Origin: an uncultured Bacilli bacterium
GTDB taxonomy: Bacteria; Bacillota_I; Bacilli_A; RF39; UBA660
Length of the DNA stretch: 64,000 bases
Direction of reading: 5' to 3'
Assembly: GCA_944331865.1 (NCBI GenBank)
Contig: CALVIZ010000002.1
Location: forward strand, 12,227 to 76,226
The notes under the pieces: model-generated
Databases searched by the model: none
What the model was told of the DNA's origin: nothing
The model's input: the letters and a program-made list of their open reading frames with translations, nothing else
Shown: in pieces, positions 15,578 to 48,980 of the stretch
How positions within the stretch are numbered: position 1 is the stretch's first letter
Layout: the number at the start of each line of letters is the position of its first letter
Program-made: the position numbers and the translations under genes

Positions 15578-15654
15578 TGGTGTCCCTGACAAGAATTGAA
15601 CTTGTGACCCCTACCTTCGGAGGGTAGTACTCTATCCAACTGAGCTACAGGGAC
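15578..15654 (-). tRNA. tRNA-Arg (anticodon CCG)
   Basis: The minus strand reads GTCCCTGTAGCTCAGTTGGATAGAGTACTACCCTCCGAAGGTAGGGGTCACAAGTTCAATTCTTGTCAGGGACACCA. 7-bp acceptor stem GTCCCTG/CAGGGAC, anticodon loop CTCCGAA, T-loop GTTCAATTC, encoded CCA. A terminator hairpin lies downstream at 15541-15566. Confidence 0.85.
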
Positions 15655-18600: not shown

Positions 18601-18764
18601 GGATGCCCATTAGCTGTTGCTGGCCCATCGTAAAAGACAAAATATGGTGCATCTTTTCTTTCATCAATACATCTTTGTAACAAATCTTCTTTTAACCATT
18701 TGTCAAGTATCTTGCCTTCAACTTGATCAACTGGTTCTTTACTTAAACTTTTAAATCTTTCCAT
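15672..18764 (-). CDS. ileS: Isoleucyl-tRNA synthetase. The 1030-aa length suggests the type 2 / eukaryote-like form.
   Basis: KMSKS motif (KMSKSRGN), Zn-finger Cys clusters, class I aaRS editing and anticodon-binding regions. 1030 aa. Confidence 0.92.
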   Translation of the reverse strand: MERFKSLSKEPVDQVEGKILDKWLKEDLLQRCIDERKDAPYFVFYDGPATANGHPGLHHLVAKFLKDTICKYKSMQGYKVIRKVGWDTHGLPVELQVEKELGFTDKKDIERYGIKEFNEKCRESVMRNEKTFTDLTNKMGQLIDIKNPYVTYKNDYIETEWWILKKFFEEGLFYEGTKILPYCPRCGTGLASHEVALGYQEDPVDTVIVPMKKKDEDVYFLVWTTTPWTLFANVGLCVNPDYEYSLVESKGYKFILASSLIKKVLGDGVKVLETFKGSEMEYWEYERLLDGPKLNKKAFFVTVDPYVTDEDGTGIVHMAGAFGEDDARVCRNYNLPYYNPVGEDGKFMEGPWRGQLVFDASDEIIKYLKENDKLFKKQRITHNYPHCWRCHSPLIYYSKPSYYLEITKIKDKIVANNKTVNWYPEYVGEKRFGNWLENLKDWAISRSRYWGTPLPYWICSCGHSEMIGSRKELVEKAIENIDESIELHRPYVDEVHLKCPECGSAMTRCKDVIDCWFDSGAMPFAQYHYPFENNDLFETQFPADYICEGIDQTRGWFYSLIVISTFVKGVSPFKNVLVNDLLLDAEGKKMSKSRGNIVEPFTTMKEYGADTVRFYLPYVSPVWVPLKFDINGLKEVHSKFFNPLRNTYNFFSMYANIDDIEINKCDIPVNSRDEIDRWLISKYNKLLKYVTESYDEYDLNKVVRSLTDFVSEDLSNWYIRRNRDRFWGSKLDDSKKSVYRTTYEVLVGISKMMAPVVPFLSEEIYTNLTNEYSVHTADFPKYDETLIDELLEEKMDKVRNLISVGRFVREENKIRVRQPLSEIFLDGKNELLIGGLTDLIKEELNVKKVTFIDDTSTYMNFRVLPNFKEVGKALGKNLKEFQEKLLELSLEDINKLRKNEIITMKIDNEDLEVTSTMVDIRIDAKTGFNIGMENNDYVILNTNLDEELINEGIAREIVSKVQLMRKNAGLELTDRIIINYEASDKIKKAINAFEDYIKKETLATEIEKNVQNGEEFSINEEVIKIAISKK

Positions 18765-18767
18765 AAT

Positions 18768-18995
18768 TCCTCCTTATAAAAAAAGAATGATACCAAAAGG
18801 AGTGCATATAGCACGGTACCATCCTTAAATTATCTTAATTATCTTAACGCGATTAACGAAATAACTTACTATAATTTCAGTTATTTAACTCCCGAGTGAT
18901 TTATATTTGTTTAATTATATTCTACTTTCACCTAACTAGAACTCTCTAAATAATATTCCAAATATACATGTCTCGTTCTTCGTTTTTTTCAAAAA
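18768..18995 (-). promoter_or_regulatory. T-box riboswitch leader of ileS, with a sigma-A promoter at 18996-19024 (TTGACT-N17-TATAAT)
   Basis: The minus-strand leader contains an AGAGA stem-I motif (tagagagttctag) and a T-box sequence AATTTAAGGATGGTACCGTG close to the consensus AAUUAGGGUGGUACCGCG. This is followed by hairpin and T-run terminator elements just upstream of the RBS AAGGAGGA. Confidence 0.65.
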
Positions 18996-35715: not shown

Positions 35716-36255
35716 TTATATCTTATATAGTTTTTTGTTTTTCTTAGATACTATGTATATTACTGCTACTGCTCCAACGCCACAAGCAAGTATTGTTAGC
35801 GGAAGTGTTGCTCCAGTACTTACTTCTTCTTCGACATCTACTTCAATTTCAATTTTACCACCTACTGATGGATTATTAACTGTTAATGTACAACCCGTTA
35901 CTCCTTCTTCTACTTCAAGTACTACTGTTGCTAAATCAAATTTAGATGCACTTATACCTTCAGTTGATGTAAACATAAAACTTGCAGAATTTCCAGTATT
36001 ATTTTTCCATCCATCGGCAGCTGTAACTGAAACTATTTTTCCTTTGTCTGATGGGGTAAATACAAATTCGCCACTAAATTCATTTAATGTGGTATTATTG
36101 TTTTCAATCCATATTTCACATACAGATTGACATACACCTTCAGGACAATCTGTTTTCTTTTCACAACTACCCTTTATGTCTAATGCCTTTGCACTTAAAG
36201 GTAATATTGCAACTATACATACTACTAAAAAACCTATAAATTTTTTCACACACAT
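35716..36255 (-). CDS. Secreted or cell-surface protein with an N-terminal signal peptide, a Cys-rich N-region, and a C-terminal hydrophobic anchor plus KKNKK tail
   Basis: Start is at the ATG preceded by AGGAGAG. Signal peptide MCVKKFIGFLVVCIVAILPLSAKA. C-terminus TLPLTILACGVGAVAVIYIVSKKNKKLYKI. The overall layout resembles a sortase substrate but no canonical sorting motif is present. Confidence 0.5.
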   Translation of the reverse strand: MCVKKFIGFLVVCIVAILPLSAKALDIKGSCEKKTDCPEGVCQSVCEIWIENNNTTLNEFSGEFVFTPSDKGKIVSVTAADGWKNNTGNSASFMFTSTEGISASKFDLATVVLEVEEGVTGCTLTVNNPSVGGKIEIEVDVEEEVSTGATLPLTILACGVGAVAVIYIVSKKNKKLYKI

Positions 36256-36280
36256 CTCTCCTATCTCTATTATGTCTAAA

Positions 36281-36351
36281 TTATAACATAAAAATACAAA
36301 AAACAACATATTTTTTTAAAAATTATATTAAAATGTGTAAAATTGTGTTAT
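36281..36351. repeat. 71-bp direct repeat R2, copy 1
   Basis: ttataacataaaaatacaaaaaacaacatatttttttaaaaattatattaaaatgtgtaaaattgtgttat is near-identical to 42918-42988. Confidence 0.8.
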
Positions 36352-36417
36352 AAATTAGAAATAATTCAGGAAAAATTTCATCAAGTTTTTACACTTAGTT
36401 TTAAAATGTATAAATTA

Positions 36418-37950
36418 TTAGTTTTTCTTACGCATTAATTTATGATCTGTATCAATTATTTCAGTTACATTATTAGTATTTCTTGATTTTATTGTTCCTA
36501 TATTTTTCATATTCAAATTATCTATTACCTCAGCATCTGTTAAAACACAAGTAAACAAATCATAACAACAAATTGTTTGAAGATTTATTCTAGCTCCTCT
36601 ACTACCTGTAAAATCTATGCTATATATGTTTACCCCATCAAATGGGCCGATAAATTCTACTTCTGAGAATTTACATTCTTTTAAATTTCCGTCATAAACT
36701 GTTTGAGGATTTATTTTGGCTCCTTTGCTTTCTGTAAAATCTGCATGATTTATTTTTGCTCCATCAAATGGGCCAATAAATTCTATTCCTGAGAATTTAC
36801 TCCATATTAAATCTTTTTCAAAAACTGTTTGAGGATTTATTTTAGCTCCTTTACTCCCTGTAAAATCTGAGTAACTTATATAAACTCCATCAAATGGGCC
36901 ATCAAATTCTATTCCTGAAAATTTGCAATTATATAAATATTTTTTATAAATTGTTTGAGGATTTATTTTAGCTCCTTTGCTTCCTGTAAAATCTGAATTA
37001 GATATTATTACTCCATCAAATGGACCTATAAATTCTACTCCTGAAAATGTACATCCATTTAAATTTTTTTCAAAAACTGTTTGAGGATTTAATTTTACTC
37101 CCTTAAATCCAGTAAAATTAAGTCCACGTATATCTACATTATCAAAAGATACATTACTAAAATCAATCTTTTTCAATAATTTCTCAGACATTTTAAATTT
37201 TCTACAAGGTATTCTATCTGCAAATAGAGTCTCTGTAGAAGATTTATCGAATTCTATAACATCCGTAACAAATAAAATATCTGGATTAGGTAAAGTTATA
37301 TATTCACCATCTTTTAATTTTTCTAAAACTTCTATTAGGTTTTGTATTTCTATATTCATTACCTCAGCATCTGTTAAAGTAGACAAACCATCATAATAAA
37401 CATTTTGTAGATCTACTATAGCTCCTTTACTTCCCATAAAATTTGTTTGGGATAAATGTACTCCATCAAATGGGCCGATAAATTCTACTCCTGATAATGT
37501 ACATCCTCTTAAATTTTTATCGTAAATTGTTTGAGGATTTATTTTAGCTCCTTTGCTTTCTGTAAAATTTGCACCTGCTATTTTCGCTCCATTAAACGGA
37601 CCTATAAATTCTACTCCTGATAATTCACATCCCCTTAAATCTTTATTTTGAACTGTTTGAGGATTTAATTTTACTCCCTTAAATCCAGTAAAATTAAATC
37701 CACTTATATCTACATTATCAAAAGATACATTACTAAAATCAATTTTTTTCAATAATTTCTGATTTATTACAGATGTTATTTCCCAATAATATTGCCCACA
37801 CTTTGCTATCTTTTCAAATAAAATGTGTGGATTAGATAAAGTTATATGCTTACCATCTTCTAGACTTTCTAAAATCTTTATTAATTGTTGTCTTTTAATC
37901 CGTAACCAATTTTCATATGTATTTTTTAAAATTTGATTAATATAAATCAT
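36418..37950 (-). CDS. 40-aa-repeat family protein, paralog A. A fused double module of 510 aa.
   Basis: Two complete N-domain+repeat modules are joined in one ORF. Repeats carry GVEFIGPFDG and (D/N)FTGSKGAKINPQT(V/I)Y. No signal peptide. Conserved C-terminal tail ...HKLMRKKN. Confidence 0.7.
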   Translation of the reverse strand: MIYINQILKNTYENWLRIKRQQLIKILESLEDGKHITLSNPHILFEKIAKCGQYYWEITSVINQKLLKKIDFSNVSFDNVDISGFNFTGFKGVKLNPQTVQNKDLRGCELSGVEFIGPFNGAKIAGANFTESKGAKINPQTIYDKNLRGCTLSGVEFIGPFDGVHLSQTNFMGSKGAIVDLQNVYYDGLSTLTDAEVMNIEIQNLIEVLEKLKDGEYITLPNPDILFVTDVIEFDKSSTETLFADRIPCRKFKMSEKLLKKIDFSNVSFDNVDIRGLNFTGFKGVKLNPQTVFEKNLNGCTFSGVEFIGPFDGVIISNSDFTGSKGAKINPQTIYKKYLYNCKFSGIEFDGPFDGVYISYSDFTGSKGAKINPQTVFEKDLIWSKFSGIEFIGPFDGAKINHADFTESKGAKINPQTVYDGNLKECKFSEVEFIGPFDGVNIYSIDFTGSRGARINLQTICCYDLFTCVLTDAEVIDNLNMKNIGTIKSRNTNNVTEIIDTDHKLMRKKN

Positions 37951-37979
37951 TATTATCCCTCCCTATATAAATTTCATTT

Positions 37980-38008
37980 ATATTATCAAAAAAAAGATAG
38001 GATGTCAA
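37980..38008 (-). promoter_or_regulatory. Sigma-A promoter of paralog A: TTGACA-N17-TAATAT
   Basis: The minus strand reads ttgacatcctatcttttttttgataatat, about 25 nt upstream of the RBS GGGAGGG. Confidence 0.55.
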
Positions 38009-38164
38009 TTTATAACATCTTAGCGTAATTTTTTCCTAAGTATAACATTTTAAAATTCCAAAGTTTAACATTTATAATGGTTTAAAAAAATAATTTGATA
38101 ATATTCTTTAAGAAAATATAATTGCATTTTAGAAATGGACATTATAAAGAGTACAAAAAAATTT

Positions 38165-38310
38165 TATTATTGACTTATCAAAAAAATACCTAACATTATT
38201 TGAAATCTTCCGTTTCACAACAAACAAAAAATGAGCTAGCTTAGTATTTCCTAAATTTGCTCATTTTTGCTGTCAAATTCAATTTATAACATAAAAATAT
38301 AAAAGTCAAT
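38165..38310. repeat. ~140-bp direct repeat R1, copy 1. Contains a hairpin aaaatgagc...gctcatttt.
   Basis: About 90% identical to 42800-42935. Confidence 0.7.
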
Positions 38311-38327
38311 ATAGAAGTATATAATTA

Positions 38328-39014
38328 CTAGAAGTGTTTTTTATTCCTAGTTAATTCCATTAAAACGAAACCAGGAGGAGGTGATTTTGGTTCGTAATCA
38401 TAATAGTCTATTATCTCAACATTTGTTAAAATAGACGAATTAGCATAAGATACTTTTTTCCGATCTACTATAGCCCCCTTACTGCCTGTAAAATCTGCAT
38501 ATAATAAGGTTGCACCATCAAATGGACCTATAAATTCTACTCCTGAGAATATACAGTAACTCAAATCTTTTTCAAAAACTCTTTGAGGATTTATTTTAGC
38601 TCCTTTGCTTCCTGTAAAATCTGTTTCGTATAAATATATTCCATCAAATGGGCCTATAAATTCTACTCCTGAAAATTTACATCTACTTAAATTTTGGGCA
38701 TAAACTGTTTGAGGATTTATTTTTACTCCCTTTAATTCAGTAAAATCCATCCCTCTTATATCTACATTATCAAAAGATATGTTACTAAAATCAATCTTTT
38801 TCAATAATCTCTCAGGTATTGCAAATTTCTTATAAGAACTACTTTCATTAAATAAAATATTTGCATCAGATAATGTCAAATATTTACCATCTTCTAGACT
38901 TTCTAAAATATTTATTAATTTTTGCCTTTCTGCTTTTATTCTATTATAAAACTCTAAACTATTTCTAATTCCATTTAAAGATTGACTATTGAAACTCATT
39001 ATTATTCCTCCCAT
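38328..39014 (-). CDS. 40-aa-repeat family protein, paralog B (228 aa, ~3 repeats)
   Basis: Conserved N-domain (LESLEDGKYLTLS), NPQT-containing repeats, and a divergent C-terminus. Confidence 0.65.
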   Translation of the reverse strand: MGGIIMSFNSQSLNGIRNSLEFYNRIKAERQKLINILESLEDGKYLTLSDANILFNESSSYKKFAIPERLLKKIDFSNISFDNVDIRGMDFTELKGVKINPQTVYAQNLSRCKFSGVEFIGPFDGIYLYETDFTGSKGAKINPQRVFEKDLSYCIFSGVEFIGPFDGATLLYADFTGSKGAIVDRKKVSYANSSILTNVEIIDYYDYEPKSPPPGFVLMELTRNKKHF

Positions 39015-39028
39015 TATAATTTAAATTT

Positions 39029-39057
39029 ATATTATCAAAAATAAGTTATGATGTCAA
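39029..39057 (-). promoter_or_regulatory. Sigma-A promoter of paralog B: TTGACA-N17-TAATAT
   Basis: The minus strand reads ttgacatcataacttatttttgataatat. Confidence 0.5.
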
Positions 39058-39092
39058 CTAAGTCATATTATCTTACACAATTGTCAAAATTA

Positions 39093-40151
39093 TTAATTTT
39101 TCTTCCGCATTAATTTAAAATTAGCATCAACTATCCCGGTTTCATTATTAGTATTTATTGATTTTATTGTTCCTATATTTTCTATATCCATTAGCTCAAC
39201 ATCTGTCAAAACACAAGTAGAAAAATCGTCATAATAAACTGTTTGAGAATCTATTCTAGCTCCTTTACTACCTGTAAAATTTGTTTTAGATATATTTGCC
39301 CCATCAAATTCACCGATAAATTCTACTCCTGAAAATGTACACCCACTTAAATCCTTATTTATAACTGTTTGGGGGTTTATTATAGCTCCTCTACTACCTG
39401 TAAAATTTGTTTTAGATATGTTTGCTCCATCAAACGAACCATCAAATTCTACTCCTGAAAATATACATCCACTTAAATCCCTCTTTATAACTTTTTGAGG
39501 ATTTATTCTAGCTCCCATACTGCCAGTAAAATTTGTTTTAAACAAGTATGCTCCATCAAATTCACCAATAATGCTAAAAACAGATCTCATTCCATAATCT
39601 TCAGGAATAAATATAACTCCAGATAATACGCAAAATCTAAAATCTCTATAATAAATTTTTTGGGGAGATATTAAGGCTCCTTTACTCCCTGTAAAATTTG
39701 CTCTAGATATTTTTGCTCCATCAAATGGTCCTATAAATTTTACACCAAAGAATGTACATCCTCTTAAATCTTTTTTATAAACTCTTTGAGGATCTATTCT
39801 AACTCCTTTACTACCAGCAAAATTTGTATCATACATATATGTATAATCAAATGAACCGTCAAATTCTACTCCTGAGAATGTACATCCTCTTAAATCTTGT
39901 TTATAAACTTTTTGAGGGTCTATTTTTACCCCCATATATCCAGTAAAATTAAGGCCACGTATACATACATTATCAAAAGATATATTACTGTAATCAATCT
40001 TTTTCAATAATCTTTTAGGTATTGCAATTTCCTTATAAACTTTACCATCTTCTACCTCAATTTCCTTAAATATAATATTTGGATTAGTCAAAGTTATATA
40101 TTCATCATCTTCTAAACTGTCTAAAACTTCTATTAGCATTTCTAAATTCAT
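39093..40151 (-). CDS. 40-aa-repeat family protein, paralog C (352 aa, subfamily 2 N-terminus MNLEMLIEVLDSLEDDEY)
   Basis: Repeats with (N/D)FTGS(K/M)G(A/V)RI(D/N)PQ(K/R)VY. Conserved C-terminal tail IDANFKLMRKKN. Confidence 0.65.
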   Translation of the reverse strand: MNLEMLIEVLDSLEDDEYITLTNPNIIFKEIEVEDGKVYKEIAIPKRLLKKIDYSNISFDNVCIRGLNFTGYMGVKIDPQKVYKQDLRGCTFSGVEFDGSFDYTYMYDTNFAGSKGVRIDPQRVYKKDLRGCTFFGVKFIGPFDGAKISRANFTGSKGALISPQKIYYRDFRFCVLSGVIFIPEDYGMRSVFSIIGEFDGAYLFKTNFTGSMGARINPQKVIKRDLSGCIFSGVEFDGSFDGANISKTNFTGSRGAIINPQTVINKDLSGCTFSGVEFIGEFDGANISKTNFTGSKGARIDSQTVYYDDFSTCVLTDVELMDIENIGTIKSINTNNETGIVDANFKLMRKKN

Positions 40152-40232
40152 AAGTATCTACTCCTCGTAAAATTACATTTATAATAATCACAAAACAAAA
40201 AATCAAATATTTTTTCATTAAAACTCAAGATT

Positions 40233-41132
40233 TTATTTCTTTCGCATTAATTTAAAATTAGCATCAATTAACCCAGTTTCATCATTACTATTTCTTGATT
40301 TTATTGTTCCTATATTTTCCATATTTATGTCATCAATTATCTTAGCATCTGTTAAAACACAAAGAGACAAATCATCAAAATAAACCGTTTGAAGATCTAT
40401 TTTAGCTCCTTTACTACCTGTAAAATCTGTTTCGTGTAAATATATTCCATCAAATGGGCCGATAAATTCTACTCCTGAGAATTTACATCTTCTTAAATTT
40501 CTCTTATAAACTGTTTGAGGTTCTATTCTAGCTCCTTTGCTTCCTGTAAAATCTGCTCCTTCTATTATCACTCTATCAAATGATTCAATAAATTCTACTC
40601 CTGAGAATTTACATTCACTTAAATTTCCCTTATAAACTGTTTGAGGATCTATTCTAGCTCCTTTGCTTCCTGTAAAATCTGCACCATTTATTTTCACTCC
40701 ATCAAATGGGCCGATAAATTCTACTCCTGAGAATTTACATTCACTTAAATTTTTATTGTAAATTGTTTGGGGATTTATTTTAGCTCCTTTGCTTCCTGTA
40801 AAATTTGTTTTAGATATATTTGCACCATCAAATGAGCCATCAAATAATACTCCCGATAATACACAAAAGTTAAAATCCTTGTCATAAACTGTTTGAGGAT
40901 CTATTTTTACTCCAATAAATCCAGTAAAATCAAAGCCACATATACATACATTATCAAAAGATACATTACTAAAATCAATCTTTCTCAATAATCTCTCAGG
41001 TATTGCAATTTCCTTATAAACTTTACCATCTTCTAAAACTTTTTCCTTAAATATAATATTTGGATTAGCCAAAGTTACATATTCATTATCTTTCAAACTA
41101 TCTAAAGCTTCTATTAGCTTTTCTAAATTCAT
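40233..41132 (-). CDS. 40-aa-repeat family protein, paralog D (299 aa, subfamily 2)
   Basis: Same architecture. C-terminal tail IDANFKLMRKK. Confidence 0.65.
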   Translation of the reverse strand: MNLEKLIEALDSLKDNEYVTLANPNIIFKEKVLEDGKVYKEIAIPERLLRKIDFSNVSFDNVCICGFDFTGFIGVKIDPQTVYDKDFNFCVLSGVLFDGSFDGANISKTNFTGSKGAKINPQTIYNKNLSECKFSGVEFIGPFDGVKINGADFTGSKGARIDPQTVYKGNLSECKFSGVEFIESFDRVIIEGADFTGSKGARIEPQTVYKRNLRRCKFSGVEFIGPFDGIYLHETDFTGSKGAKIDLQTVYFDDLSLCVLTDAKIIDDINMENIGTIKSRNSNDETGLIDANFKLMRKK

Positions 41133-41200
41133 ATTTTCAACTCCTCACAAAATTGCATTTATAATAATCACAAAAACAAAAATATCAAGTTTTTCATAAC

Positions 41201-42718
41201 TCAAAGCTGATTTTTATTCCGTATTAATTTATAATCAGCATCAATTAGACCAATTTCATCATTAGTAATTCTTGATTTTATTATTCCTATTTTTTCCATA
41301 TCTATGTCATCCGTTATCTCAACATCTGTTAAAACACAAAGATACAAACAATCATAATAAACCGTTCGAAGATTTATTTTAGCTCCTTTGCTTCCTGTAA
41401 AATCTAATTCGTTTAAATATATTCCATCAAATGAACCTATAAATTCTACTCCTGATAATTTACATTTTTCAAAACTATAAAGTGTTTGAGGATTTATTCT
41501 AGCTCCTTTGCTTCCTGTAAAATCTGCACCATTTATTTTCACTCCATCAAATGGGCCTATAAATTCTACTCCTGAGAATGTACATTCTTTTAAATCACTG
41601 TAAATTGTTTGAGGATTTATTTTAGCGCCTTTACTTCCTGTAAAATCTGCACCATTTATTTTCACTCTATCAAATGGGCCAATAAATTCTACGCCTGAAA
41701 ATTTGTTCCAACTTAAATCTTTTTCATAAACTGTTTGAGGATTTATTTTAGCTCCTTTGCTTCCTGTAAAATCTGCTCCTATGTAATCTGTATAACCAAA
41801 ATATACTAATTCTACTCCATCAAATGAGCCGATAAATTCTACTCCTGAGAATGTACATCCACTTAAATATTTATTGTAAATTGTTTGGGGATTTATTTTA
41901 GCTCCTTTACTTCCTGTAAAATTTGCACCAACTATTTTTGCGCCATCAAATGGGCCGATAAATTCTACTCCTGATAATATACACCATATAAATTTTTTTT
42001 CAAAAATTGTTTGAGGATTTATTTTAGCTCCTTTGCTTCCTGTAAAATCCGCTCCTTCGCTTCCTAAATCATCAAAATGTACTAAGTCCGCTCCATCAAA
42101 TGGGCCAATAAATTCTACTTCTGAAAATTTACATCCTCTTAAATTTTTTTTAAAAACGGTTTGAGGATTTATTTTAGCTCCTTTGCTTCCTGTAAAATTT
42201 GCTTTTTCTATCATTACTCCATCAAATGGACCTATAAATTCTACTCCTGAAAATTTGTTCCAACTTAAATCTTTTTCATAAACTGTTTGAGGATTTATTT
42301 TGGCTCCTTTGCTTCCTGTAAAATTTGTTCCTTCTATTATCACTCCATCAAATGGGCCGATAAATTCTACTCCTGATAATTTACACCCTCTTAAATTTTT
42401 TTTAAAAACGGTTTGAGGATTTATTTTTATTCCCTTATATCCAGTAAAATTAAATCCTCTTATGTCTACATTATCAAAAGATACATTACTAAAATCAATC
42501 TTTTTCAATAATATCTCAGGTATTGCAAATTCCCTATAAGAGTAGTTCTCATTTTCTTCAATTTCATTGAATAAAATATCTGCATTAGATAATGTTAAAT
42601 ACTTACCATCTTCTAGGCTTTCTAAAACATTTATTAGATTTTGCCTTTCAGCTTCTATTCTATTATAAAATTCTAAACTATTTCTATCTTCATTTAAAGA
42701 TTGACTATTGAAACTCAT
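41201..42718 (-). CDS. 40-aa-repeat family protein, paralog E (505 aa, ~8.5 repeats)
   Basis: N-domain as in paralog B. Eight near-identical repeats (KFSGVEFIGPFDG...ADFTGSKGAKINPQTVY). C-terminal tail IDADYKLIRNKN. Confidence 0.7.
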   Translation of the reverse strand: MSFNSQSLNEDRNSLEFYNRIEAERQNLINVLESLEDGKYLTLSNADILFNEIEENENYSYREFAIPEILLKKIDFSNVSFDNVDIRGFNFTGYKGIKINPQTVFKKNLRGCKLSGVEFIGPFDGVIIEGTNFTGSKGAKINPQTVYEKDLSWNKFSGVEFIGPFDGVMIEKANFTGSKGAKINPQTVFKKNLRGCKFSEVEFIGPFDGADLVHFDDLGSEGADFTGSKGAKINPQTIFEKKFIWCILSGVEFIGPFDGAKIVGANFTGSKGAKINPQTIYNKYLSGCTFSGVEFIGSFDGVELVYFGYTDYIGADFTGSKGAKINPQTVYEKDLSWNKFSGVEFIGPFDRVKINGADFTGSKGAKINPQTIYSDLKECTFSGVEFIGPFDGVKINGADFTGSKGARINPQTLYSFEKCKLSGVEFIGSFDGIYLNELDFTGSKGAKINLRTVYYDCLYLCVLTDVEITDDIDMEKIGIIKSRITNDEIGLIDADYKLIRNKNQL

Positions 42719-42748
42719 TATTATTCCTCCCCATATAAATTAAAATTT

Positions 42749-42777
42749 ATATTATCAAAAAAAATATATGGTGTCAA
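42749..42777 (-). promoter_or_regulatory. Sigma-A promoter of paralog E: TTGACA-N17-TAATAT
   Basis: The minus strand reads ttgacaccatatattttttttgataatat. Confidence 0.5.
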
Positions 42778-42799
42778 GTAAAATTAACTTAAGAAATTT

Positions 42800-42935
42800 T
42801 TTATTATTGATTAAAAAAATACCTAACATTATTTGAAATTTTCTGTTTCACAACAAACAAAAAATGAGCAATCTTAGTATTTACCTAACTTTGCTCATTT
42901 TTGCTGTCAAACTCAAGTTATAATATAAAAATACA
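42800..42935. repeat. ~140-bp direct repeat R1, copy 2
   Basis: About 90% identical to 38165-38310. Contiguous with R2 copy 2. Confidence 0.7.
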
Positions 42936-42988
42936 AAAAACAACATATTTTTTTAAAAATTATATTAAAATGTGTAAAATTGTGTTAT
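42918..42988. repeat. 71-bp direct repeat R2, copy 2
   Basis: Near-identical to 36281-36351 with 1-2 mismatches. Lies immediately upstream of the sortase-like gene. Confidence 0.8.
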
Positions 42989-43014
42989 CATATTAAAGTA
43001 ATATAGGTGAAGTT

Positions 43015-44589
43015 ATGAAAAAAGTATTAATAAGAATAAAGGATAATAGTTTTATTGTAAAAGAAAAAATTAAATTGTCTAGTGAATATAAAAATATTTT
43101 AAATACTAATGTAATTAGTTGTAATGAACTAGTTTTTTCTAATGAATATATTGTAAATAACCCCAAAATTGTTAGTAATTTTATTCAAGAATTATCTAAA
43201 ACTTACAATATTGATACTTTAATAATTGAAAAAAATGACTTTACTTTGTTATTCTTGAATATTGTAAAAAATAATAAAAACATAACTTCTTTAATTTTAA
43301 AAGATGATACACCTTTAACTTTTAAAATGTGTGAAGCTATTATGCACTCTTATGTTAAGAATGTCAATTGTTATACTTTACAACCATTTATGATAGAATA
43401 CCTTGATAAATATAATATTATTGTTGAATCTAGAAATGAAATACTATATTTATCTAAATTTATGATTGATAATAATTTAAGTATTTTTTCATCTATGTTT
43501 TATAAAATGACTCTAAATATGGATTTACCCTTGAATGAACAAGATGAACAAGATTTTGAAGCTTTTTGTAAAATTAATAAATATTTAAAAAATATTAATG
43601 TTAATATTGTTAATAAAAATGATTTAGAATTTATTATTAAAACTTTAAGACAAAATAATAAAAAGAATATTAAAATTAATATTCATGAAAATATAAGTAA
43701 TGTAGAATTAATTGAATATTTAAAGAATTTTAATAAGAGGAAAAGTAAAAAATATAAAATATATTTTCGCTTAGTATATAGTAATGATTATTTAAAAGAT
43801 AATATTTTTAAACAAACTAATTTAAGTTTACTTAAAACATGTGGTTATTTAATTTTGTTAATTGTATTTTTTTCTTTTGGTTATGTCTTTTATGATAATT
43901 ATAAATCTATGCAAAGTGATAATAACATAAAAGAAAATATAACAAAAGTTATTGAAATAAATGATTCTGAAGATATTATTGCGGAACTTAATAAAGATAA
44001 GCAGGAAGATGAAAAATTAGTTGTTAATGAAGATATTGCTAGTTTAATAAATGTAAATCCAGAAGTAGTGGCATGGATTAAAGTTAATAATACTAATATT
44101 GATTATCCAATAACCCAAACAGATAATAATGAATTTTATTTAAAACATAATTTCTATTTAGAAAAGGATAATAATGGTTGGGTTTTTATGGATTATCGAA
44201 ATCATACTGATGATTTAAGTGATAATATCATTCTTTATGCTCATAATAGATATTATAGTGGTATTATGTTTGGTACATTACAAAATACTTTAAGATATAG
44301 TTGGTATACTAATCCCGAAAATCAAATTATTAGTTTAAGAACTCTATATGAAAATTTAGAATATCAAGTATTTTCCGTTTATAAAATTACAGTTACTACC
44401 GATTATATGCAAACTTTATTTGCAGATGATAATGATCGATTAAACTTTTATAATATGTTAAAAAATAGAAGTATTTATAATTTTAATGTTGAACTTAAAG
44501 GTAGTGATAAAATAATAACTTTATCAACTTGTGCTGAAGATAATAGTAGATATGTATTACATGCTGTTTTAAAAAACGATGATAAATAG
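43015..44589 (+). CDS. Class B sortase-like transpeptidase domain fused to a ~280-aa N-terminal cytoplasmic extension and one TM helix
   Basis: The C-terminal ~190 aa carry SrtB-family hallmarks: the catalytic His context IILYAHNR, the Cys motif TLSTC, a downstream Arg, and the VAWIKVNNTNIDYPITQTDNNEFYLKHNF segment typical of SrtB. A TM helix LLKTCGYLILLIVFFSFGYVFY is preceded by a K/R-rich stretch, giving N-in topology. RBS taggtgaagtt, then ATG. Confidence 0.7.
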   Translation: MKKVLIRIKDNSFIVKEKIKLSSEYKNILNTNVISCNELVFSNEYIVNNPKIVSNFIQELSKTYNIDTLIIEKNDFTLLFLNIVKNNKNITSLILKDDTPLTFKMCEAIMHSYVKNVNCYTLQPFMIEYLDKYNIIVESRNEILYLSKFMIDNNLSIFSSMFYKMTLNMDLPLNEQDEQDFEAFCKINKYLKNINVNIVNKNDLEFIIKTLRQNNKKNIKINIHENISNVELIEYLKNFNKRKSKKYKIYFRLVYSNDYLKDNIFKQTNLSLLKTCGYLILLIVFFSFGYVFYDNYKSMQSDNNIKENITKVIEINDSEDIIAELNKDKQEDEKLVVNEDIASLINVNPEVVAWIKVNNTNIDYPITQTDNNEFYLKHNFYLEKDNNGWVFMDYRNHTDDLSDNIILYAHNRYYSGIMFGTLQNTLRYSWYTNPENQIISLRTLYENLEYQVFSVYKITVTTDYMQTLFADDNDRLNFYNMLKNRSIYNFNVELKGSDKIITLSTCAEDNSRYVLHAVLKNDDK

Positions 44590-44606: not shown

Positions 44607-45805
44607 AATTGTAATTTCAACCGCACCATTTAATATAATTTTAACAAACAATAAAAATTTGTCAATTTTTTTCTTTTTTGTTTGATAATTTTTATAAATA
44701 TATATTATGGTTTTTTTGTCAATGACACGCAGTGTTTATTTTATCATTGACAAAAAAATCATAATATTATTACAATTTTAATCAAACAAAAATAATAATT
44801 AATATTCCATTTCTTTTTCATATGAGTTTTTAAATCCAAACATTTTTCTTGGCATTGAATTAATATTAAATGCTATGTCATCTAGATATATTTGTGGGGT
44901 TATTTTAAATGACATTCCTTTTGGTAAATATCTTCTTACTATTGCATTTGTTCTTTCATTTGTTCCTCTTTGAAACGAACAATATGGATCACATTTATAT
45001 AGTTTTACTCCTAGTCTTTTTGCTGCTATTCCCATTGCTCTAAATTCTAATCCATTATCTATTGTTATTGATTTTACTTTTATTTCATTTTTTATTATAT
45101 ATTTATATATTAGGTTTGCTGTATAATAATCATATCTATATTCTGACTTTATTAACCATACTCTCCTTGTACATCTATCAACTATTGATACTATTGATTG
45201 TTGTTCATCCTTTTTTCCTAGTATTGAATCTATTTCCAAATGCCCTGGCTCTCTTCTTTCTTCTATATATTTTGGTCTTAATCCTATTGGTAATATTGTT
45301 TTATTTTCTAGATTCCATATGAAATGTTCCATCATTCCACTTCTCTTTTTCTTTTTGTGCTTTTTATAACATAAATCTGTTCTTTTTAAATATATTTTTC
45401 CTTGTTCTATCCAATTATATACTTGTTTTACACTTACACTTTTTTCTCCTAAATACATTTTCTTAAATCGATATACACATACTTCTATTGAATGATCTTT
45501 TCTATCATAATGATCAAATAAATATTTTATAAATATTTCATATTTCTTATTTATATCTATTTTCCTTTTTTTATATATTCCCGCTTTATATCTTGATATT
45601 GTTGAATGACTTATACCTAATCTTCTTCCTACTTCTCTCATTGATAAATTTTGTTTTAACAAAATATCAATTTCTACTTTATTTTTTTCTGTTAATTGTT
45701 TATAATGCATATAAGAGCTCCTCCTTGCCGGGTTGTGGGCTCTTTTATTATACCAAAAAAAGCCGCACCTTGTGGTGCGGTTCAAATTTCAATTTAGGAA
45801 AAACG
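44607..45805 (-). mobile_element. IS30-family insertion sequence (~1.2 kb) with terminal inverted repeats and a ~32-bp flanking duplication
   Basis: IRL aattgtaatttcaaccgcacca at 44607-44628. IRR (reverse complement) aattgaaatttgaaccgcacca at 45784-45805, a 20/22 match. Flanking direct repeat aaaaacgatgataaatagttcatcgttttttt at ~44573-44604 and ~45810-45841. Confidence 0.75.
44799..45710 (-). CDS. IS30-family transposase (DDE)
   Basis: N-terminal HTH (LSMREVGRRLGISHSTISRY). DDE residues with the IS30 signature ...QRGTNERTNAIVRRYLPKG. The start was trimmed to the ATG at 45708-45710 (MHYKQL), which is preceded by AGGAGGAG. Confidence 0.85.
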   Translation of the reverse strand: MHYKQLTEKNKVEIDILLKQNLSMREVGRRLGISHSTISRYKAGIYKKRKIDINKKYEIFIKYLFDHYDRKDHSIEVCVYRFKKMYLGEKSVSVKQVYNWIEQGKIYLKRTDLCYKKHKKKKRSGMMEHFIWNLENKTILPIGLRPKYIEERREPGHLEIDSILGKKDEQQSIVSIVDRCTRRVWLIKSEYRYDYYTANLIYKYIIKNEIKVKSITIDNGLEFRAMGIAAKRLGVKLYKCDPYCSFQRGTNERTNAIVRRYLPKGMSFKITPQIYLDDIAFNINSMPRKMFGFKNSYEKEMEY

Positions 45806-45828: not shown

Positions 45829-46788
45829 TTATAAAAAAGGATTTATTCTTTGTAATTCTTCATTACTATTATACATATTCATTTCTTCAAATATTCCTTT
45901 AGTTAAATCAGCATTTTCATTATAAAAATCAATAAGTAATTGAGCCCCTAATTCTTTATCACATAGTATCTCTTCTATTAAGTTATCTATATCTTCACCT
46001 TGATCTATTAAATCTATTAATATTTCTGTGCTTTCTTTTTCTTTATCTTCACTTTCTTCATTAAAATCATTTTCAGAATAATAATCAGATTTATATAATA
46101 CATTTTTATAAATATTAAATAACATATATTGTATTAAAAAACGAATGTCTAAATTAAATTCTATTACCAGTTCTAAAAATTTTTCCCAAATAAATACATC
46201 CTCATTTTTGCCATATATATACCTACTTTGAGCTTGAGCCAGTTCATTTAGTTCTATTATTTTACTAATTATCCGTTCTTCATCCGATAAATCTTTAGCA
46301 TTATCTTCCATTGTAAATATTGAAAAAGGATTTATTTTTAATAATTTACTTATTTCTTTATTAGCAATTAAATATTCCCTTGCTTTGTAACTTACTAAAT
46401 AATTACCCTCATTAACCATTTCAACATAATATAAAATAATCATTTTATCAATTGGTTTTTTTATTTTTTCTTTTAAAGATAAAGATTCTATGTTTTCTTT
46501 AACTGAATCGCTATATGGCATTGGTATATTTATTGCTTTAAAATAATTAATAAACAAATAAGCCATTTCATATACATATAATTTTAATATAACGATAATG
46601 TTTTCTTTTGTTAAGTTGTATTTATCTATGTATTGGGCAAAATCATTTTCAAAATTAGTAGACTTGCCTTGTAAATAATTTGTTATTTCATCTACTATAG
46701 TTTCACTATTATATAAAACATTAGTATTAGCATTAAATTTTTGAATAATTTCTATAATAATATTTTCTTTTAGCTCAATTTCCCCCAT
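45829..46788 (-). CDS. Hypothetical cytoplasmic protein (319 aa, acidic)
   Basis: ORF between the two IS30 copies. No motif. Confidence 0.45.
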   Translation of the reverse strand: MGEIELKENIIIEIIQKFNANTNVLYNSETIVDEITNYLQGKSTNFENDFAQYIDKYNLTKENIIVILKLYVYEMAYLFINYFKAINIPMPYSDSVKENIESLSLKEKIKKPIDKMIILYYVEMVNEGNYLVSYKAREYLIANKEISKLLKINPFSIFTMEDNAKDLSDEERIISKIIELNELAQAQSRYIYGKNEDVFIWEKFLELVIEFNLDIRFLIQYMLFNIYKNVLYKSDYYSENDFNEESEDKEKESTEILIDLIDQGEDIDNLIEEILCDKELGAQLLIDFYNENADLTKGIFEEMNMYNSNEELQRINPFL

Positions 46789-46795
46789 AAAAACC

Positions 46796-47590
46796 TCAAT
46801 TTACTACAGTTGAACTATAATAATAAAAACTGTCAGTTTCTTTATCATATTTAAAACTATGTTCATATGTTACTAGATTATTTATATAATCGTTTATATT
46901 AAAATTAGAACTATAAACTATTGCAGTATTTAAATCTTTTCTATCTTCATCATTATAACATTGCTTCGTTTCTAAATCACACTTTAAATAATAATCATAT
47001 ATTTTTATTACGTTATTATTTTCCGTTAATGCATATCTGATTATTTCTTTATATTCAATATAATTGTTACTTATATTTTCATTTGTGTCATATATATAGT
47101 AATATTCATTGTTATATTTTGCTTTAATGTTTTTATTATAATCAAAATCTGTTGATATAAATTTTATATCTGGACCTAATATAGTTTTGGCAGCTTCTTT
47201 AAATTTACTTAAACTGACTTTATATAATGGAGTATAATTATTAGTATTATTTAATACTTCAGATAATTCTTCTTTAGTTAGTACTTCTAAACTAAAATTA
47301 TCATATTTTAGTATGTATTGATAAATCATTGCTTGGATATATCTTGTATTTTGATTAGCTAAATTTGTATTAATTACATAATGAATTGAATGCACTCCAT
47401 CATATTCTAAAGCATTATCATTTAATAAATATGAATAAAGTTCTTTTACTGTACTTTCACCTATTTCATCAATGTTTGTATTTGTTTCTTTATTATTTTT
47501 TTCAAAATTAAATAATTTATAAAAACCAAAGCATGATCCAAGTACTAATAAAACAACACCGATTATTATTGCTATTTTTTTTGCATTCAT
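46796..47590 (-). CDS. Hypothetical membrane-anchored or secreted protein (264 aa)
   Basis: N-terminal signal-anchor MNAKKIAIIIGVVLLVLGSCFGFY. Confidence 0.45.
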   Translation of the reverse strand: MNAKKIAIIIGVVLLVLGSCFGFYKLFNFEKNNKETNTNIDEIGESTVKELYSYLLNDNALEYDGVHSIHYVINTNLANQNTRYIQAMIYQYILKYDNFSLEVLTKEELSEVLNNTNNYTPLYKVSLSKFKEAAKTILGPDIKFISTDFDYNKNIKAKYNNEYYYIYDTNENISNNYIEYKEIIRYALTENNNVIKIYDYYLKCDLETKQCYNDEDRKDLNTAIVYSSNFNINDYINNLVTYEHSFKYDKETDSFYYYSSTVVN

Positions 47591-47663
47591 TATTCATTCA
47601 CCTTAATAAAATTTTAGCATTTTTTTTTATTCTTGACAATAAAAAATCAAGATTTCTCTTGAT

Positions 47664-48980
47664 TTAATCAACTATATTTATACATGTATAATTCTTTTGA
47701 TCATAGTAATTTTTTAGTCCACTATATGTTCTATCAAATACTCCACCTGCTTCTGTATCTAATGTACTGGCACTTAAATCAGTGGCAATTTTTAATGTAT
47801 AATTTTCATCATCATATTCTGCTAGACCACTTATATTATTAAATGTTATTGTTTCTGGCTTACCATTAGTTATTTGAATATAATCATCATTATTACTAAA
47901 TTTATATGTATATATTCTTTGTGATATTTCTAAATATCCTAAACCATTTTCTGTTGCCCCTAAAACTAAATTATCTGTAGTTGTCATTGATCCAGAATAT
48001 CCTTCAATTTCACTATCTAATGATGTGCATGATCTAATTGCTGTGATGTCACTTGGAGATACATATAATATTGCGTTTACTTCTTTGCTATTATTTTCAT
48101 CATCTGAAAGTGTTATACCTACATTATATGGACCACCCGCTGTTGATAAATAACTATTTACAGTCTCTTTATTACTAAATGCATATTTACAATTTGATGG
48201 ATCTGTACATGATACTATAAAGTCATCAACTGAAATTGTAGTTGTATTTATTACTTTATATACCGTTTTTAATTGCGCTGTTGGTGCTGTTTTGTCTACT
48301 ACGTGTATTGTTCCTGTATAAGTATCTTCACCACAAGTTATAGTAAAATTATAATCTCCTAAAGCATTAGTATTTACATTATTAATATTTTTTTCACAAG
48401 TTGCTGCTCCCCCACCAGTAATTGTTGCATAATCACTTATATCATCAGATAATGTTTCCCCTAATCCTAAGGTTACATCTTTTATTTGAACATTTACTTT
48501 ATTATTCGCCATATTTAAATAATAATATACCCCAAATGCTACAGCTCCGATTAGTATTACTATTATTATTGTAAATAATACTTTATTCATTGGCCTTTTT
48601 GGTTTTTCTTGTTTTGGTGGTACTGCCCCTATATCTTCAACTTTTGTTGGTTCAACAAAACCATTATTATTTATATTGCCTAATGATATTCCTCCTGGGT
48701 CTTGACCTATAGAACTTCCCATATTATTTGGCATATTATTGTTTTCAGTTCCAGGAATTGGTGTTGCTACTGGATTGTTTTGTGGATTATTTGGCATGCT
48801 TATAGTATCTGAAACAGTATTTGTTACTGGTGTGCTGTTTAAATTAGTATTAACTGAATTAGTTACTGGTTCACCAACTGGTTGAGTTTGAATTGTTGGC
48901 TCTGGATTTTGACTTACTGGTTGTTCATTTAAATTATTACTTTGATTTTGTCCTAAATTATTAAAATTTTGCTCATTCAT
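47664..48980 (-). CDS. Hypothetical bitopic protein (438 aa). Q/N/P-rich N-terminus, one TM, extracellular C-terminal domain.
   Basis: Low-complexity N-terminus (NLGQNQSNNLNEQPVSQNPEP...). TM helix VLFTIIIVILIGAVAFGVYYYL. Confidence 0.45.
   Translation of the reverse strand: MNEQNFNNLGQNQSNNLNEQPVSQNPEPTIQTQPVGEPVTNSVNTNLNSTPVTNTVSDTISMPNNPQNNPVATPIPGTENNNMPNNMGSSIGQDPGGISLGNINNNGFVEPTKVEDIGAVPPKQEKPKRPMNKVLFTIIIVILIGAVAFGVYYYLNMANNKVNVQIKDVTLGLGETLSDDISDYATITGGGAATCEKNINNVNTNALGDYNFTITCGEDTYTGTIHVVDKTAPTAQLKTVYKVINTTTISVDDFIVSCTDPSNCKYAFSNKETVNSYLSTAGGPYNVGITLSDDENNSKEVNAILYVSPSDITAIRSCTSLDSEIEGYSGSMTTTDNLVLGATENGLGYLEISQRIYTYKFSNNDDYIQITNGKPETITFNNISGLAEYDDENYTLKIATDLSASTLDTEAGGVFDRTYSGLKNYYDQKNYTCINIVD

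Follow-up and report, generated by a model that had tools for sequence, protein, structure and literature searches.

A tandem, strain-variable array of genes for pentapeptide-repeat solenoid proteins in uncultured gut Bacilli

Pentapeptide-repeat proteins (PRPs), defined by at least eight contiguous pentapeptides of the form [S,T,A,V][D,N][L,F][S,T,R][G], make up a superfamily of about 39,000 sequences, and the function of nearly all of them is not known (PMC8145042). Known PRPs bind partner proteins, gyrase being one example, often protecting them, and many of these proteins dimerise via C-terminal helices (PMC8145042). A precedent of another kind is provided by the esaG and tipC arrays, where recombination between paralogues gives rise to chimeras and deletions (Garrett et al. 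2022, PMC9484751). Here we consider five consecutive genes, g1 to g5, which occupy positions 36418-42718 on the minus strand of a stretch of 64,000 nucleotides (nt) from an uncultured Bacilli bacterium (assembly GCA_944331865.1, contig CALVIZ010000002.1, positions 12,227 to 76,226 of the forward strand); the whole stretch is referred to below as the window. The genes form a tandem array that encodes paralogous proteins, predicted to be cytoplasmic beta-solenoids, of a narrow, lineage-specific PRP branch of uncultured low-GC gut Bacilli, and the numbers of both genes and repeat units in this array change through recombination.

The assignment to the PRPs departs from an earlier note on this DNA, made from the sequence alone, which placed the repeat outside the pentapeptide family and saw in the locus a contingency family. 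All five proteins score above the gathering cutoff of Pfam family PF00805 (Pentapeptide; 20.2 bits), with 60.7 bits for g1, 30.2 for g2, 48.6 for g3, 48.4 for g4 and 65.4 for g5. When a profile of a double unit (84 amino acids, aa) was run against the sequences of the PDB, it matched only PRPs, namely At2g44920 (3n90, 1e-4), AhQnr (8e-4), QnrB1, MfpA and Rfr; similarly, every significant Foldseek match in the PDB and a viral library is a pentapeptide-repeat protein. Leucine-rich repeat (LRR) proteins, which the earlier note had also set aside, were not matched by the double-unit profile in the PDB at E<=10, no LRR family of Pfam matched the five proteins at E<=1, and the LxxLxLxxN motif is absent from them. 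To the described PRP subfamilies the five proteins do not belong: the NCBIfam models of QnrB, MfpA, SmQnr and HetL yield 16-48 bits, under their cutoffs of 260-460. The earlier note had also stated that a confident match to a characterised family of known function would speak against its view; the match to a family is there, but the function of that family is mostly not known. What the locus encodes is a divergent branch of a known superfamily, of structural interest and variable between strains; it is not a repeat beyond classification, nor is the locus a contingency locus, which corrects the view of it as a repeat of no known class or a family of phase-variable antigens.

The genes of the array are:

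41201-42718, minus strand: g5, 505 aa; type-A N-terminal domain, a first partial unit and 8 further units, tail ...DYKLIRNKNQL
40233-41132, minus strand: g4, 299 aa; type-B N-terminal domain, four 42-aa units, tail ...NFKLMRKK
39093-40151, minus strand: g3, 352 aa; type-B N-terminal domain, five units (one of them 55 aa), tail ...NFKLMRKKN
38328-38999, minus strand: g2, 223 aa from the start supported by a ribosome-binding site; type-A N-terminal domain, two units, variant tail ...PPGFVLMELTRNKKHF
36418-37950, minus strand: g1, 510 aa; in-frame fusion of a type-A gene with a complete type-B gene, tail ...HKLMRKKN

These are the open reading frames (ORFs) of 510, 228, 352, 299 and 505 aa that had been delimited before, with one amendment. 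The full ORF of g2 (228 aa) extends over 38328-39014; since its first ATG falls within the ribosome-binding site, translation most likely starts at a second ATG (MSFNSQ...) at 38999, yielding 223 aa, and this start is backed by the alignment of the leaders and by the relative P0054. The conserved N-terminal domain is present as described, although in six copies and not five, as repeat finding revealed a second, internal copy in g1. Of the conserved cationic tail, a part of the description stands: ...KLMRKKN terminates g1, g3 and g4 and, in the version KLIRNKNQL, g5, whereas g2 ends in a different tail, shared with the relative P0012, and the tails, with a net charge of -4 to +1 overall, are cationic only in the last ~6 residues.

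None of the five proteins contains a signal peptide, a transmembrane segment or an LPxTG-like motif. In keeping with the reading of these proteins as leaderless, the maximal Kyte-Doolittle mean over 15 residues within the first 50 aa is 0.19-0.60, as compared to 3.03 in a secreted neighbour, and no 19-residue hydropathy window exceeds 1.29 anywhere in the five proteins. Because export signals are absent, the products of g1-g5 are taken to be cytoplasmic.

The repeat itself, with its consensus and its single INPQT per unit, had been read correctly, except for its length: the period in the DNA is 126 nt, so that the unit measures 42 aa and not ~40. When the proteins are split at G-A-x-I-N-P-Q, 20 units are exactly 42 aa long and the variants have 40, 41, 50 or 55 aa, two of the g5 units being 50 aa long owing to inserts of 8 aa. 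The same spacing prevails throughout the family: in 120 relatives, 240 intervals between motifs are of 42 aa, against 22 for the next commonest value. In the unit consensus, ~5-6 of the 8 segments (KDLSG, CKFSG, VEFI(G), VKISG, ANFTG) fit the central and i-2 positions of a pentapeptide. The run is, however, broken in each unit by a 4-residue side (GPFDG overlaps VEFIG), the non-canonical SKGAK and the 8-residue turn INPQTVYK, and eight strictly contiguous canonical pentapeptides do not occur in the unit.

How such a unit may fold can be judged from the AlphaFold2 (AF2) models of g4 (predicted local distance difference test score, pLDDT, 89.2; predicted template modelling score, pTM, 0.84) and of P0037, a distant relative that is 36-41% identical to g3 and g4 (pLDDT 95.4, pTM 0.87). 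Both models are beta-solenoids, the outcome for which structure prediction had been proposed as a check. They share the per-unit secondary-structure (DSSP) pattern E----E----EE-------E----E----E--EE-HHH-HHH, in which single-residue beta bridges spaced 5, 5, 9, 5, 5 and 3 residues are followed by a short helical turn. Accordingly modelled, each unit would consist of two coils, one of ~19 residues (KDLSG-CKFSG-VEFI-GPFDG) and one of ~23 residues (VKISG-ANFTG-SKGAK-INPQTVYK), with the last side of the longer coil predicted to be the helical turn. The helix starts at P-Q-T in the models, and the residue before P-Q is N in 12 and D in 6 cases in the window, the motif reading NPQ in 210 and DPQ in 66 cases in the 120 relatives. 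Since this interchange of N and D before P-Q-T matches the pattern of a helix N-cap, INPQT is, in the predicted fold, a structural motif, the N-cap (N/D-P-Q) of the helical turn.

The N-terminal domain (50-70 aa) is confidently modelled in g4 and P0037 as a small alpha/beta unit. At the other end, the tail of g4 is predicted to be disordered (pLDDT below 50), and the Lys-rich C-terminus of P0037 is a confident 23-residue helix (321-343). Within the units, F15, F19, F29, S32 and G34 are invariant and Cys is conserved once, at position 8; the entropy exceeds 1.8 bits at positions 2, 6, 7, 9, 23, 25 and 26, and in the models positions 2/6/7/9 and 23/25/26 appear as equivalent outward-pointing sites of the two coils. 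This branch shows an unusual combination of confinement to gut Bacilli, tandem copies and, if the models are right, a regular two-coil super-repeat whose capped turn gives an LRR-like rod. Such an architecture, if confirmed by experiment, would widen the structural range of the Rfr fold, and the unit would be a new modular scaffold for protein design.

The array occupies a shared chromosomal site, between a class B sortase gene and the gene of a small secreted protein next to lysS, and its size at this site differs between strains:

505-299-352 aa: three-gene array (L047-L049, L056, L057)
499-257-352-259 aa: four-gene array of a sister lineage (L054/L055, GCA_964308315)
505-299-352-228-510 aa: five-gene array (window, L061, L063; L062, L064 and L065 are cut by contig ends)

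The occurrence of 3, 4 or 5 genes at one site agrees with the idea of a variable multigene family put forward in the earlier note, as does the difference in repeat number, seen here between orthologues: that of g4 in L054 has 257 aa as against 299, which is a difference of exactly one 42-aa unit. With the identical g1 protein on at least 10 contigs, which come from several samples, the five-gene form is not a mis-assembly.

In the three-gene strains, g2 is absent and g3 has exchanged its 3' end for that of the array's last gene. Specifically, the third gene of L047 is 100% identical to the g3 of the window over its first ~800 nt, turns mosaic ~225 nt before its stop, inside the GVEFIG of the last unit, where it shifts towards the 3' end of g1, and past its stop tracks the flank of the g1 of the window. 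Had g3 and the array's last gene crossed over unequally but in register, such a gene would be the expected product.

A fusion has taken place as well. To judge from its sequence, g1 is an in-frame fusion of a tailless type-A gene to the initiator Met of a type-B gene: the junction ...LTDAEV|MNIEIQNLIEVLEKLKDGEY lies at V197|M198 (codon 198 at 37357-37359); the first module comprises a type-A N-terminal domain and 2 units and has lost its tail; the second comprises a type-B N-terminal domain, 4 units and a tail; and the DNA similarity of g1 to the g3 of L047 starts precisely at the ATG of the latter gene. An identical junction is present in P0012, the fourth gene of the sister lineage, so that the fusion must be old. 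The orthologue of g2 in L061-L065, in turn, has a stop at codon 8 (MSFNSQS*), gene callers giving a product of 183 aa, and this copy is decaying in a part of the population. The earlier statement that no pseudogenised remnants were seen in the array calls for qualification, given the g2 tail variant, with its codon-8 stop in other strains, and the g1 fusion.

These changes in gene and unit number are driven by recombination. As all units are 126 nt long and alike, homologous recombination between units and between paralogues can be unequal while remaining in register, and in this way adds or removes units, deletes or duplicates genes, makes chimeras and fuses genes. The locus is a clean natural example of in-register recombination that alters gene number, unit number and gene fusion, and the crossover breakpoint can be mapped from metagenome assemblies.

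Conservation is uneven along the array. The ratio of nonsynonymous to synonymous polymorphism (pN/pS) between strains is 0 for g5, 0.06 for g4 and 0.59 for the first 810 nt of g3, compared with 0.08-0.10 for the sortase gene, for p177, the gene of the small secreted protein, and for lysS. With values of 0 and 0.06, g5 and g4 are conserved, functional genes under purifying selection. Their synonymous diversity (0.003 and 0.012, respectively) is 5-25 times lower than the 0.06-0.08 observed in the sortase gene, p177 and lysS, which hints at a recent spread or homogenisation of that part of the array between strains.

The family is small. A search with g4 retrieved 386 relatives, almost all of them nameless and one labelled 'YjbI with pentapeptide repeats'; a hidden Markov model of the N-terminal domain and the first unit found 914 cluster representatives at E<=1e-3, 227 of them at E<=1e-30, among 1.84 billion. 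A scan of one-genome-per-species data with the N-terminal region located the family at 46 loci (L001-L046), nearly all in uncultured gut 'Bacilli bacterium' metagenome-assembled genomes (MAGs; rabbit, goat, water deer and Hadza samples), other host titles being 'Mycoplasma sp. CAG:877', 'Tenericutes' and 'Erysipelotrichaceae'. In GTDB, the genus CAG-877 belongs to the order RF39 (PMC8035907), which is also the order of one source genome of the family. The 46 loci hold 93 genes, with two or more copies at 21 loci and a maximum of seven; same-strand tandem arrays are common, and several MAGs carry more than one locus. The relatives are about 160 to 780 aa long, with 1 to 16 motifs per gene, and internal N-terminal domains recur in other long relatives.

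One subtype of 475-516 aa (P0056, P0057, P0063, P0079, P0082, P0090) has a distinct architecture: its irregular solenoid gives way to a charged linker, probably helical, after which come a conserved segment ('...LGV.PKNLY.SIPI..EELLV.IDDHYEINR.F..YLRFLNLSMIDFSNVKVSGLDFR...') and, at the end, a short block of repeats. The repeats are also traversed by long antisense ORFs, 51 of which, from 26 of the loci, form one cluster; these are by-products of the repetitive sequence and not genes. Origin from a mobile element was considered and rejected, as tblastn found no match in phage or plasmid collections, matches to PHROG were faint and the array lies between core genes; a defence system was likewise dismissed, PADLOC giving no match.

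What could these proteins do in the cell? Since characterised PRPs bind partners and the array proteins present a variable surface stripe on a rigid scaffold, analogy points to cytoplasmic protein binding as their most likely role. They would act as rigid protein-binding rods, with the specificity of binding residing in the variable outward stripe (unit positions 2, 6, 7, 9 and 23, 25, 26), and, by analogy with the characterised PRPs, the array may furnish the cell with a small repertoire of binders that protect or inhibit their partners. The account as a whole, that of a recombining cytoplasmic array of PRP-branch solenoids whose products most likely serve as protein-binding rods, is one to which we would give moderate credence.

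Several points weigh against this account. The binding role is assigned by analogy, and the coil geometry is that of predicted models only. When all ORFs of the 46 loci, with flanks of 10 kb, were clustered, no gene was found to recur beside the arrays as a conserved partner; the neighbours that recur in some of the loci are of housekeeping types (ABC exporter, MutS, RluA-type synthase, GerM, SpoIIIAH-like). Furthermore, g5 and g4 hardly vary between strains, which is unexpected for an arms-race repertoire, and pN/pS at the variable stripe positions is 1.07, that is, about neutral, versus 0.53 elsewhere in the units. The comparison of 1.07 with 0.53 is circular, because the positions had been chosen by their variability, and so does not show positive selection on the stripe.

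A bolder version of the binding account, which strikes us as speculative and unlikely, would make the family a hitherto unrecognised solenoid class that bridges PRPs and LRR proteins and forms an intracellular, recombination-diversified binder repertoire of reduced-genome gut Bacilli of the RF39 type. If true, it would be a bacterial analogue of the recognition repertoires based on LRR or ankyrin repeats, with incoming toxins, phage proteins or host factors as possible targets.

On the general binding account, the array is not secreted, not phase-variable and not a DNA mimic of the Qnr type. Among the alternatives to a general binding role, the one that survives best, although it too seems unlikely, is a more specific form of the protective-binder idea, an orphan immunity-gene array, in which the paralogues would neutralise different polymorphic toxins from competitors; the locus would then be comparable to the EsaG and TipC arrays of firmicutes with a type VII secretion system (T7SS). 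Such a function would go well with tandem, non-identical, leaderless paralogues of strain-variable number, with chimeras and deletions that arise by recombination between paralogues, as in esaG and tipC (PMC9484751), and with the fact that several characterised PRPs (McbG, AlbG, Qnr) are self-protection factors against toxins. It would not, on the other hand, lead one to expect the near-invariance of g5 and g4 between strains. Nor are toxin, LXG/WXG or T7SS genes found beside the array in the window, and none recurs within the 10-kb flanks of the 46 other loci; also missing are any match to a known immunity family and any match in PADLOC.

The C-terminus of the proteins raises the question of a structural role. 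In 95 of the 120 family members the last 20 residues carry a net positive charge, the rest being mildly acidic, and the amphipathic moment of the tail is 0.61 versus 0.50 in shuffled sequences; the basic segment may act as a helix for dimerisation, as a cap or as a tether to the membrane. From the last of these options one may construct a membrane or envelope scaffold, with a basic and often amphipathic helix that would hold the rods against the membrane's inner face, or would mediate their self-assembly into something like a cytoskeleton. Relatives of the Mollicutes with reduced genomes might need such a structure, and the confident helix at the end of P0037 would suit it. We nevertheless consider it improbable: the excess in amphipathic moment is modest, the tail is predicted to be disordered in g4, the canonical tail is missing from g2 and from the first module of g1, and a C-terminal helix could just as well be a solenoid cap or the kind of dimerisation helix that known PRPs have.

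That the array proteins are DNA mimics like Qnr and MfpA, which would bind DNA gyrase or topoisomerase IV and shield them from poisons, is very unlikely. The resemblance comprises weak sequence similarity to the QnrB and MfpA models, the matches to MfpA, QnrB1 and AhQnr in the Foldseek and PDB profile searches, and the C-terminal helix of the distant member P0037, which is like the dimerisation helix of those proteins. It falls short, however, of the curated NCBIfam cutoffs for Qnr, MfpA and AlbG (16-48 bits versus 360-460). The net charge of the solenoids, -9 to +4 over 123-401 residues, seems too weak for an acidic DNA mimic; proteins of about 160 to 780 aa with variable unit numbers are a misfit for a dimer of fixed, DNA-segment size; a single conserved target would make most of the five paralogues at a locus superfluous; and the predicted shape is unlike a straight tower of 20 residues per coil.

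The regulatory sequences of the array bear upon yet another possibility. Two types of leader, recognised already in the earlier note, precede the genes: type A lies upstream of g1, g2 and g5, and type B upstream of g3 and g4. Upstream of each of the three type-A genes lie a promoter-like site of the extended -10 type, close to consensus, and a GGAGG ribosome-binding site, which speaks for functional genes. The features outside the coding regions are:

42749-42777, minus strand: promoter-like site of g5, TTGACA, 17 nt, TG-n-TAATAT, with T8 in the spacer
39029-39057, minus strand: promoter-like site of g2, hexamers as in g5, 17-nt spacer with T5
37980-38008, minus strand: promoter-like site of g1, hexamers as in g5, 17-nt spacer with T8
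42840-42915, minus strand: very stable extended hairpin and a following U-run, upstream of the promoter of g5, -27.3 kcal/mol, z = -5.9
38210-38285, minus strand: second copy of the hairpin, between the g2 stop and the g1 promoter, -20.2 kcal/mol, z = -3.6
36278-36377, unstranded: copy R0 of the repeat R, downstream of g1 and directly upstream of the small secreted-protein gene
42915-43014, unstranded: copy R5 of the repeat R, at the far upstream end of the array, abutting the start of the sortase gene

The hairpin at 42840-42915 looks like an intrinsic terminator or an insulator, and the one at 38210-38285 is probably the terminator of g2, which would make the hairpin a terminator probably duplicated together with the unit; both were missed by a consensus terminator scan because their loop is long. 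The 71-bp repeat reported to bracket the array is real, 36281-36351 and 42918-42988 being identical at 70 of 71 positions with an exact core of 64 nt, and the similarity between R0 and R5 reaches 100 nt at 87%; a third, partial copy lies at 38247-38313.

Phase-variable contingency surface antigens, switched by the tract length of promoters as in the vlp genes of Mycoplasma, were suggested by the protein size that varies via repeat number, by the runs of T5-T8 within the 17-nt spacers of the three type-A promoters and by a host lineage related to the Mollicutes. Yet the lengths of both the spacers and the T-runs are unchanged in all same-species assemblies (these being consensus assemblies) that cover the promoters, and the sister lineage has no T-run; switching by promoter poly-T was for this reason rejected, and contingency in the sense of phase variation, as the earlier note had it, is not sustained. 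Proteins devoid of a signal peptide, a lipobox and a transmembrane segment, two of them (g5 and g4) under purifying selection and near-identical between strains, make surface antigens of this kind highly improbable.

The genes on either side deserve a description of their own. The class B sortase gene (43015-44589, plus strand; 524 aa) scores 161 bits with TIGR03064, the cutoff being 153.75, and looks unusually long, a region of ~270 aa at its N-terminus, with no match in Pfam, preceding a hydrophobic segment and the catalytic domain. On the other side of the array, the small protein p177 (35716-36249, minus strand; 177 aa as called elsewhere, with the ORF extending to 36309) is strongly hydrophobic at its N-terminus and ends in ...TLPLT-ILACGVGAVAVIYIV-SKKNKK, a sequence that looks like a sorting signal for a sortase. 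Because these two genes flank the array, each abutting a 71-100 nt repeat copy, the array may sit inside the former divergent promoter region of the sortase and its substrate. An IS30-like transposase gene (HTH_38 plus rve; 44799-45785, minus strand) lies between the sortase gene and the next gene; this insertion varies between strains, being present in the window, L047 and L048 but missing from L056 and L057, which are syntenic in other respects. Three consecutive genes of 319, 264 and 438 aa (45829-48980, minus strand), without matches in Pfam or NCBIfam, are syntenic beside the sortase gene in same-species strains.

Farther away, the genes around the array, named via syntenic strain loci, are core chromosomal ones: lysyl-tRNA synthetase, the arginine deiminase pathway, a Mur ligase and RNA polymerase. 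In base composition the window is AT-rich (about 20-35% G+C), and its GC skew is steadily negative. Rfam has no match within the array, its sole hits in the window being a tRNA gene at 15581-15654 (minus strand) and, at 18795-18989 (minus strand), a T-box leader with 93.1 bits, just at the gathering score, upstream of an ORF of 1030 aa (15672-18764).

The SrtB of Staphylococcus aureus recognises NPQTN. That the array proteins, with NPQT once per unit and a gene next door that encodes a class B sortase (TIGR03064), should be substrates or decoys of this sortase is hardly credible and was rejected as unlikely: they lack a signal peptide, and none of the motifs is followed by an anchor of hydrophobic and basic residues; at none of the other 46 loci does a sortase gene adjoin the array; about one motif in four has D instead of N; the motif opens a predicted helix, N/D-P-Q being a capping box in that place; and p177 is the better candidate substrate. 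The resemblance to the SrtB motif beside a sortase gene is thus most likely a coincidence.

It remains to set the array beside the systems that it calls to mind. The vlp genes of Mycoplasma are a tandem multigene family with size variation via in-frame repeats and homopolymer runs in promoter spacers, and the array is likewise a size-varying tandem family with homopolymer promoter spacers in a lineage related to the Mollicutes; it differs in having no lipoprotein signal and no variation of tract length, in being conserved between strains, and in products predicted to be folded solenoids, unlike the repeat regions associated with the Vlp proteins. With the esaG and tipC arrays (PMC9484751), it shares strings of non-identical leaderless paralogues, a strain-variable number of genes, and recombination between conserved blocks of paralogues that leads to loss, expansion and chimeras; in sequence and fold it is unrelated to them, with no toxin or T7SS genes beside it in the window or recurring in the 10-kb flanks of the 46 loci, and here recombination acts within genes, too, on units of 126 nt.

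In their geometry, the array proteins resemble the short-repeat (21-24 residue) LRR proteins, such as Listeria InlJ (3bz5) and the LRR ectodomains of plants, in having about 21 residues per turn on average, short helical segments on one side, and variable surface residues on a repetitive scaffold; the title of the PDB entry of InlJ mentions a cysteine ladder, and the array unit has a conserved Cys at position 8. However, LRR proteins repeat one type of coil, whereas two types alternate in the models of the array proteins, which have neither an LRR match in Pfam or in profile searches nor the LRR motif.

The closest kin are the PRPs of the Rfr fold (PF00805; HetL, Rfr32, At2g44920, MfpA, Qnr). 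The segments CKFSG, VEFIG and ANFTG fit their signature [STAV][DN][LF][STR][G], and the beta-solenoid, the inward F/L/I, the small residues at i-2 and the helical N- and C-terminal elements are common to both. Where known PRPs are built of uniform coils of 20 residues, the array proteins repeat strictly every 42 residues, each super-repeat joining two coils of unequal length (~19 and ~23 residues in the models), with an N/D-P-Q-capped helical turn on one side of every second coil. The conserved N-terminal domain of 50-70 aa is specific to this branch, and its genes stand apart from those of other PRPs in forming tandem arrays, the content of which varies from strain to strain.

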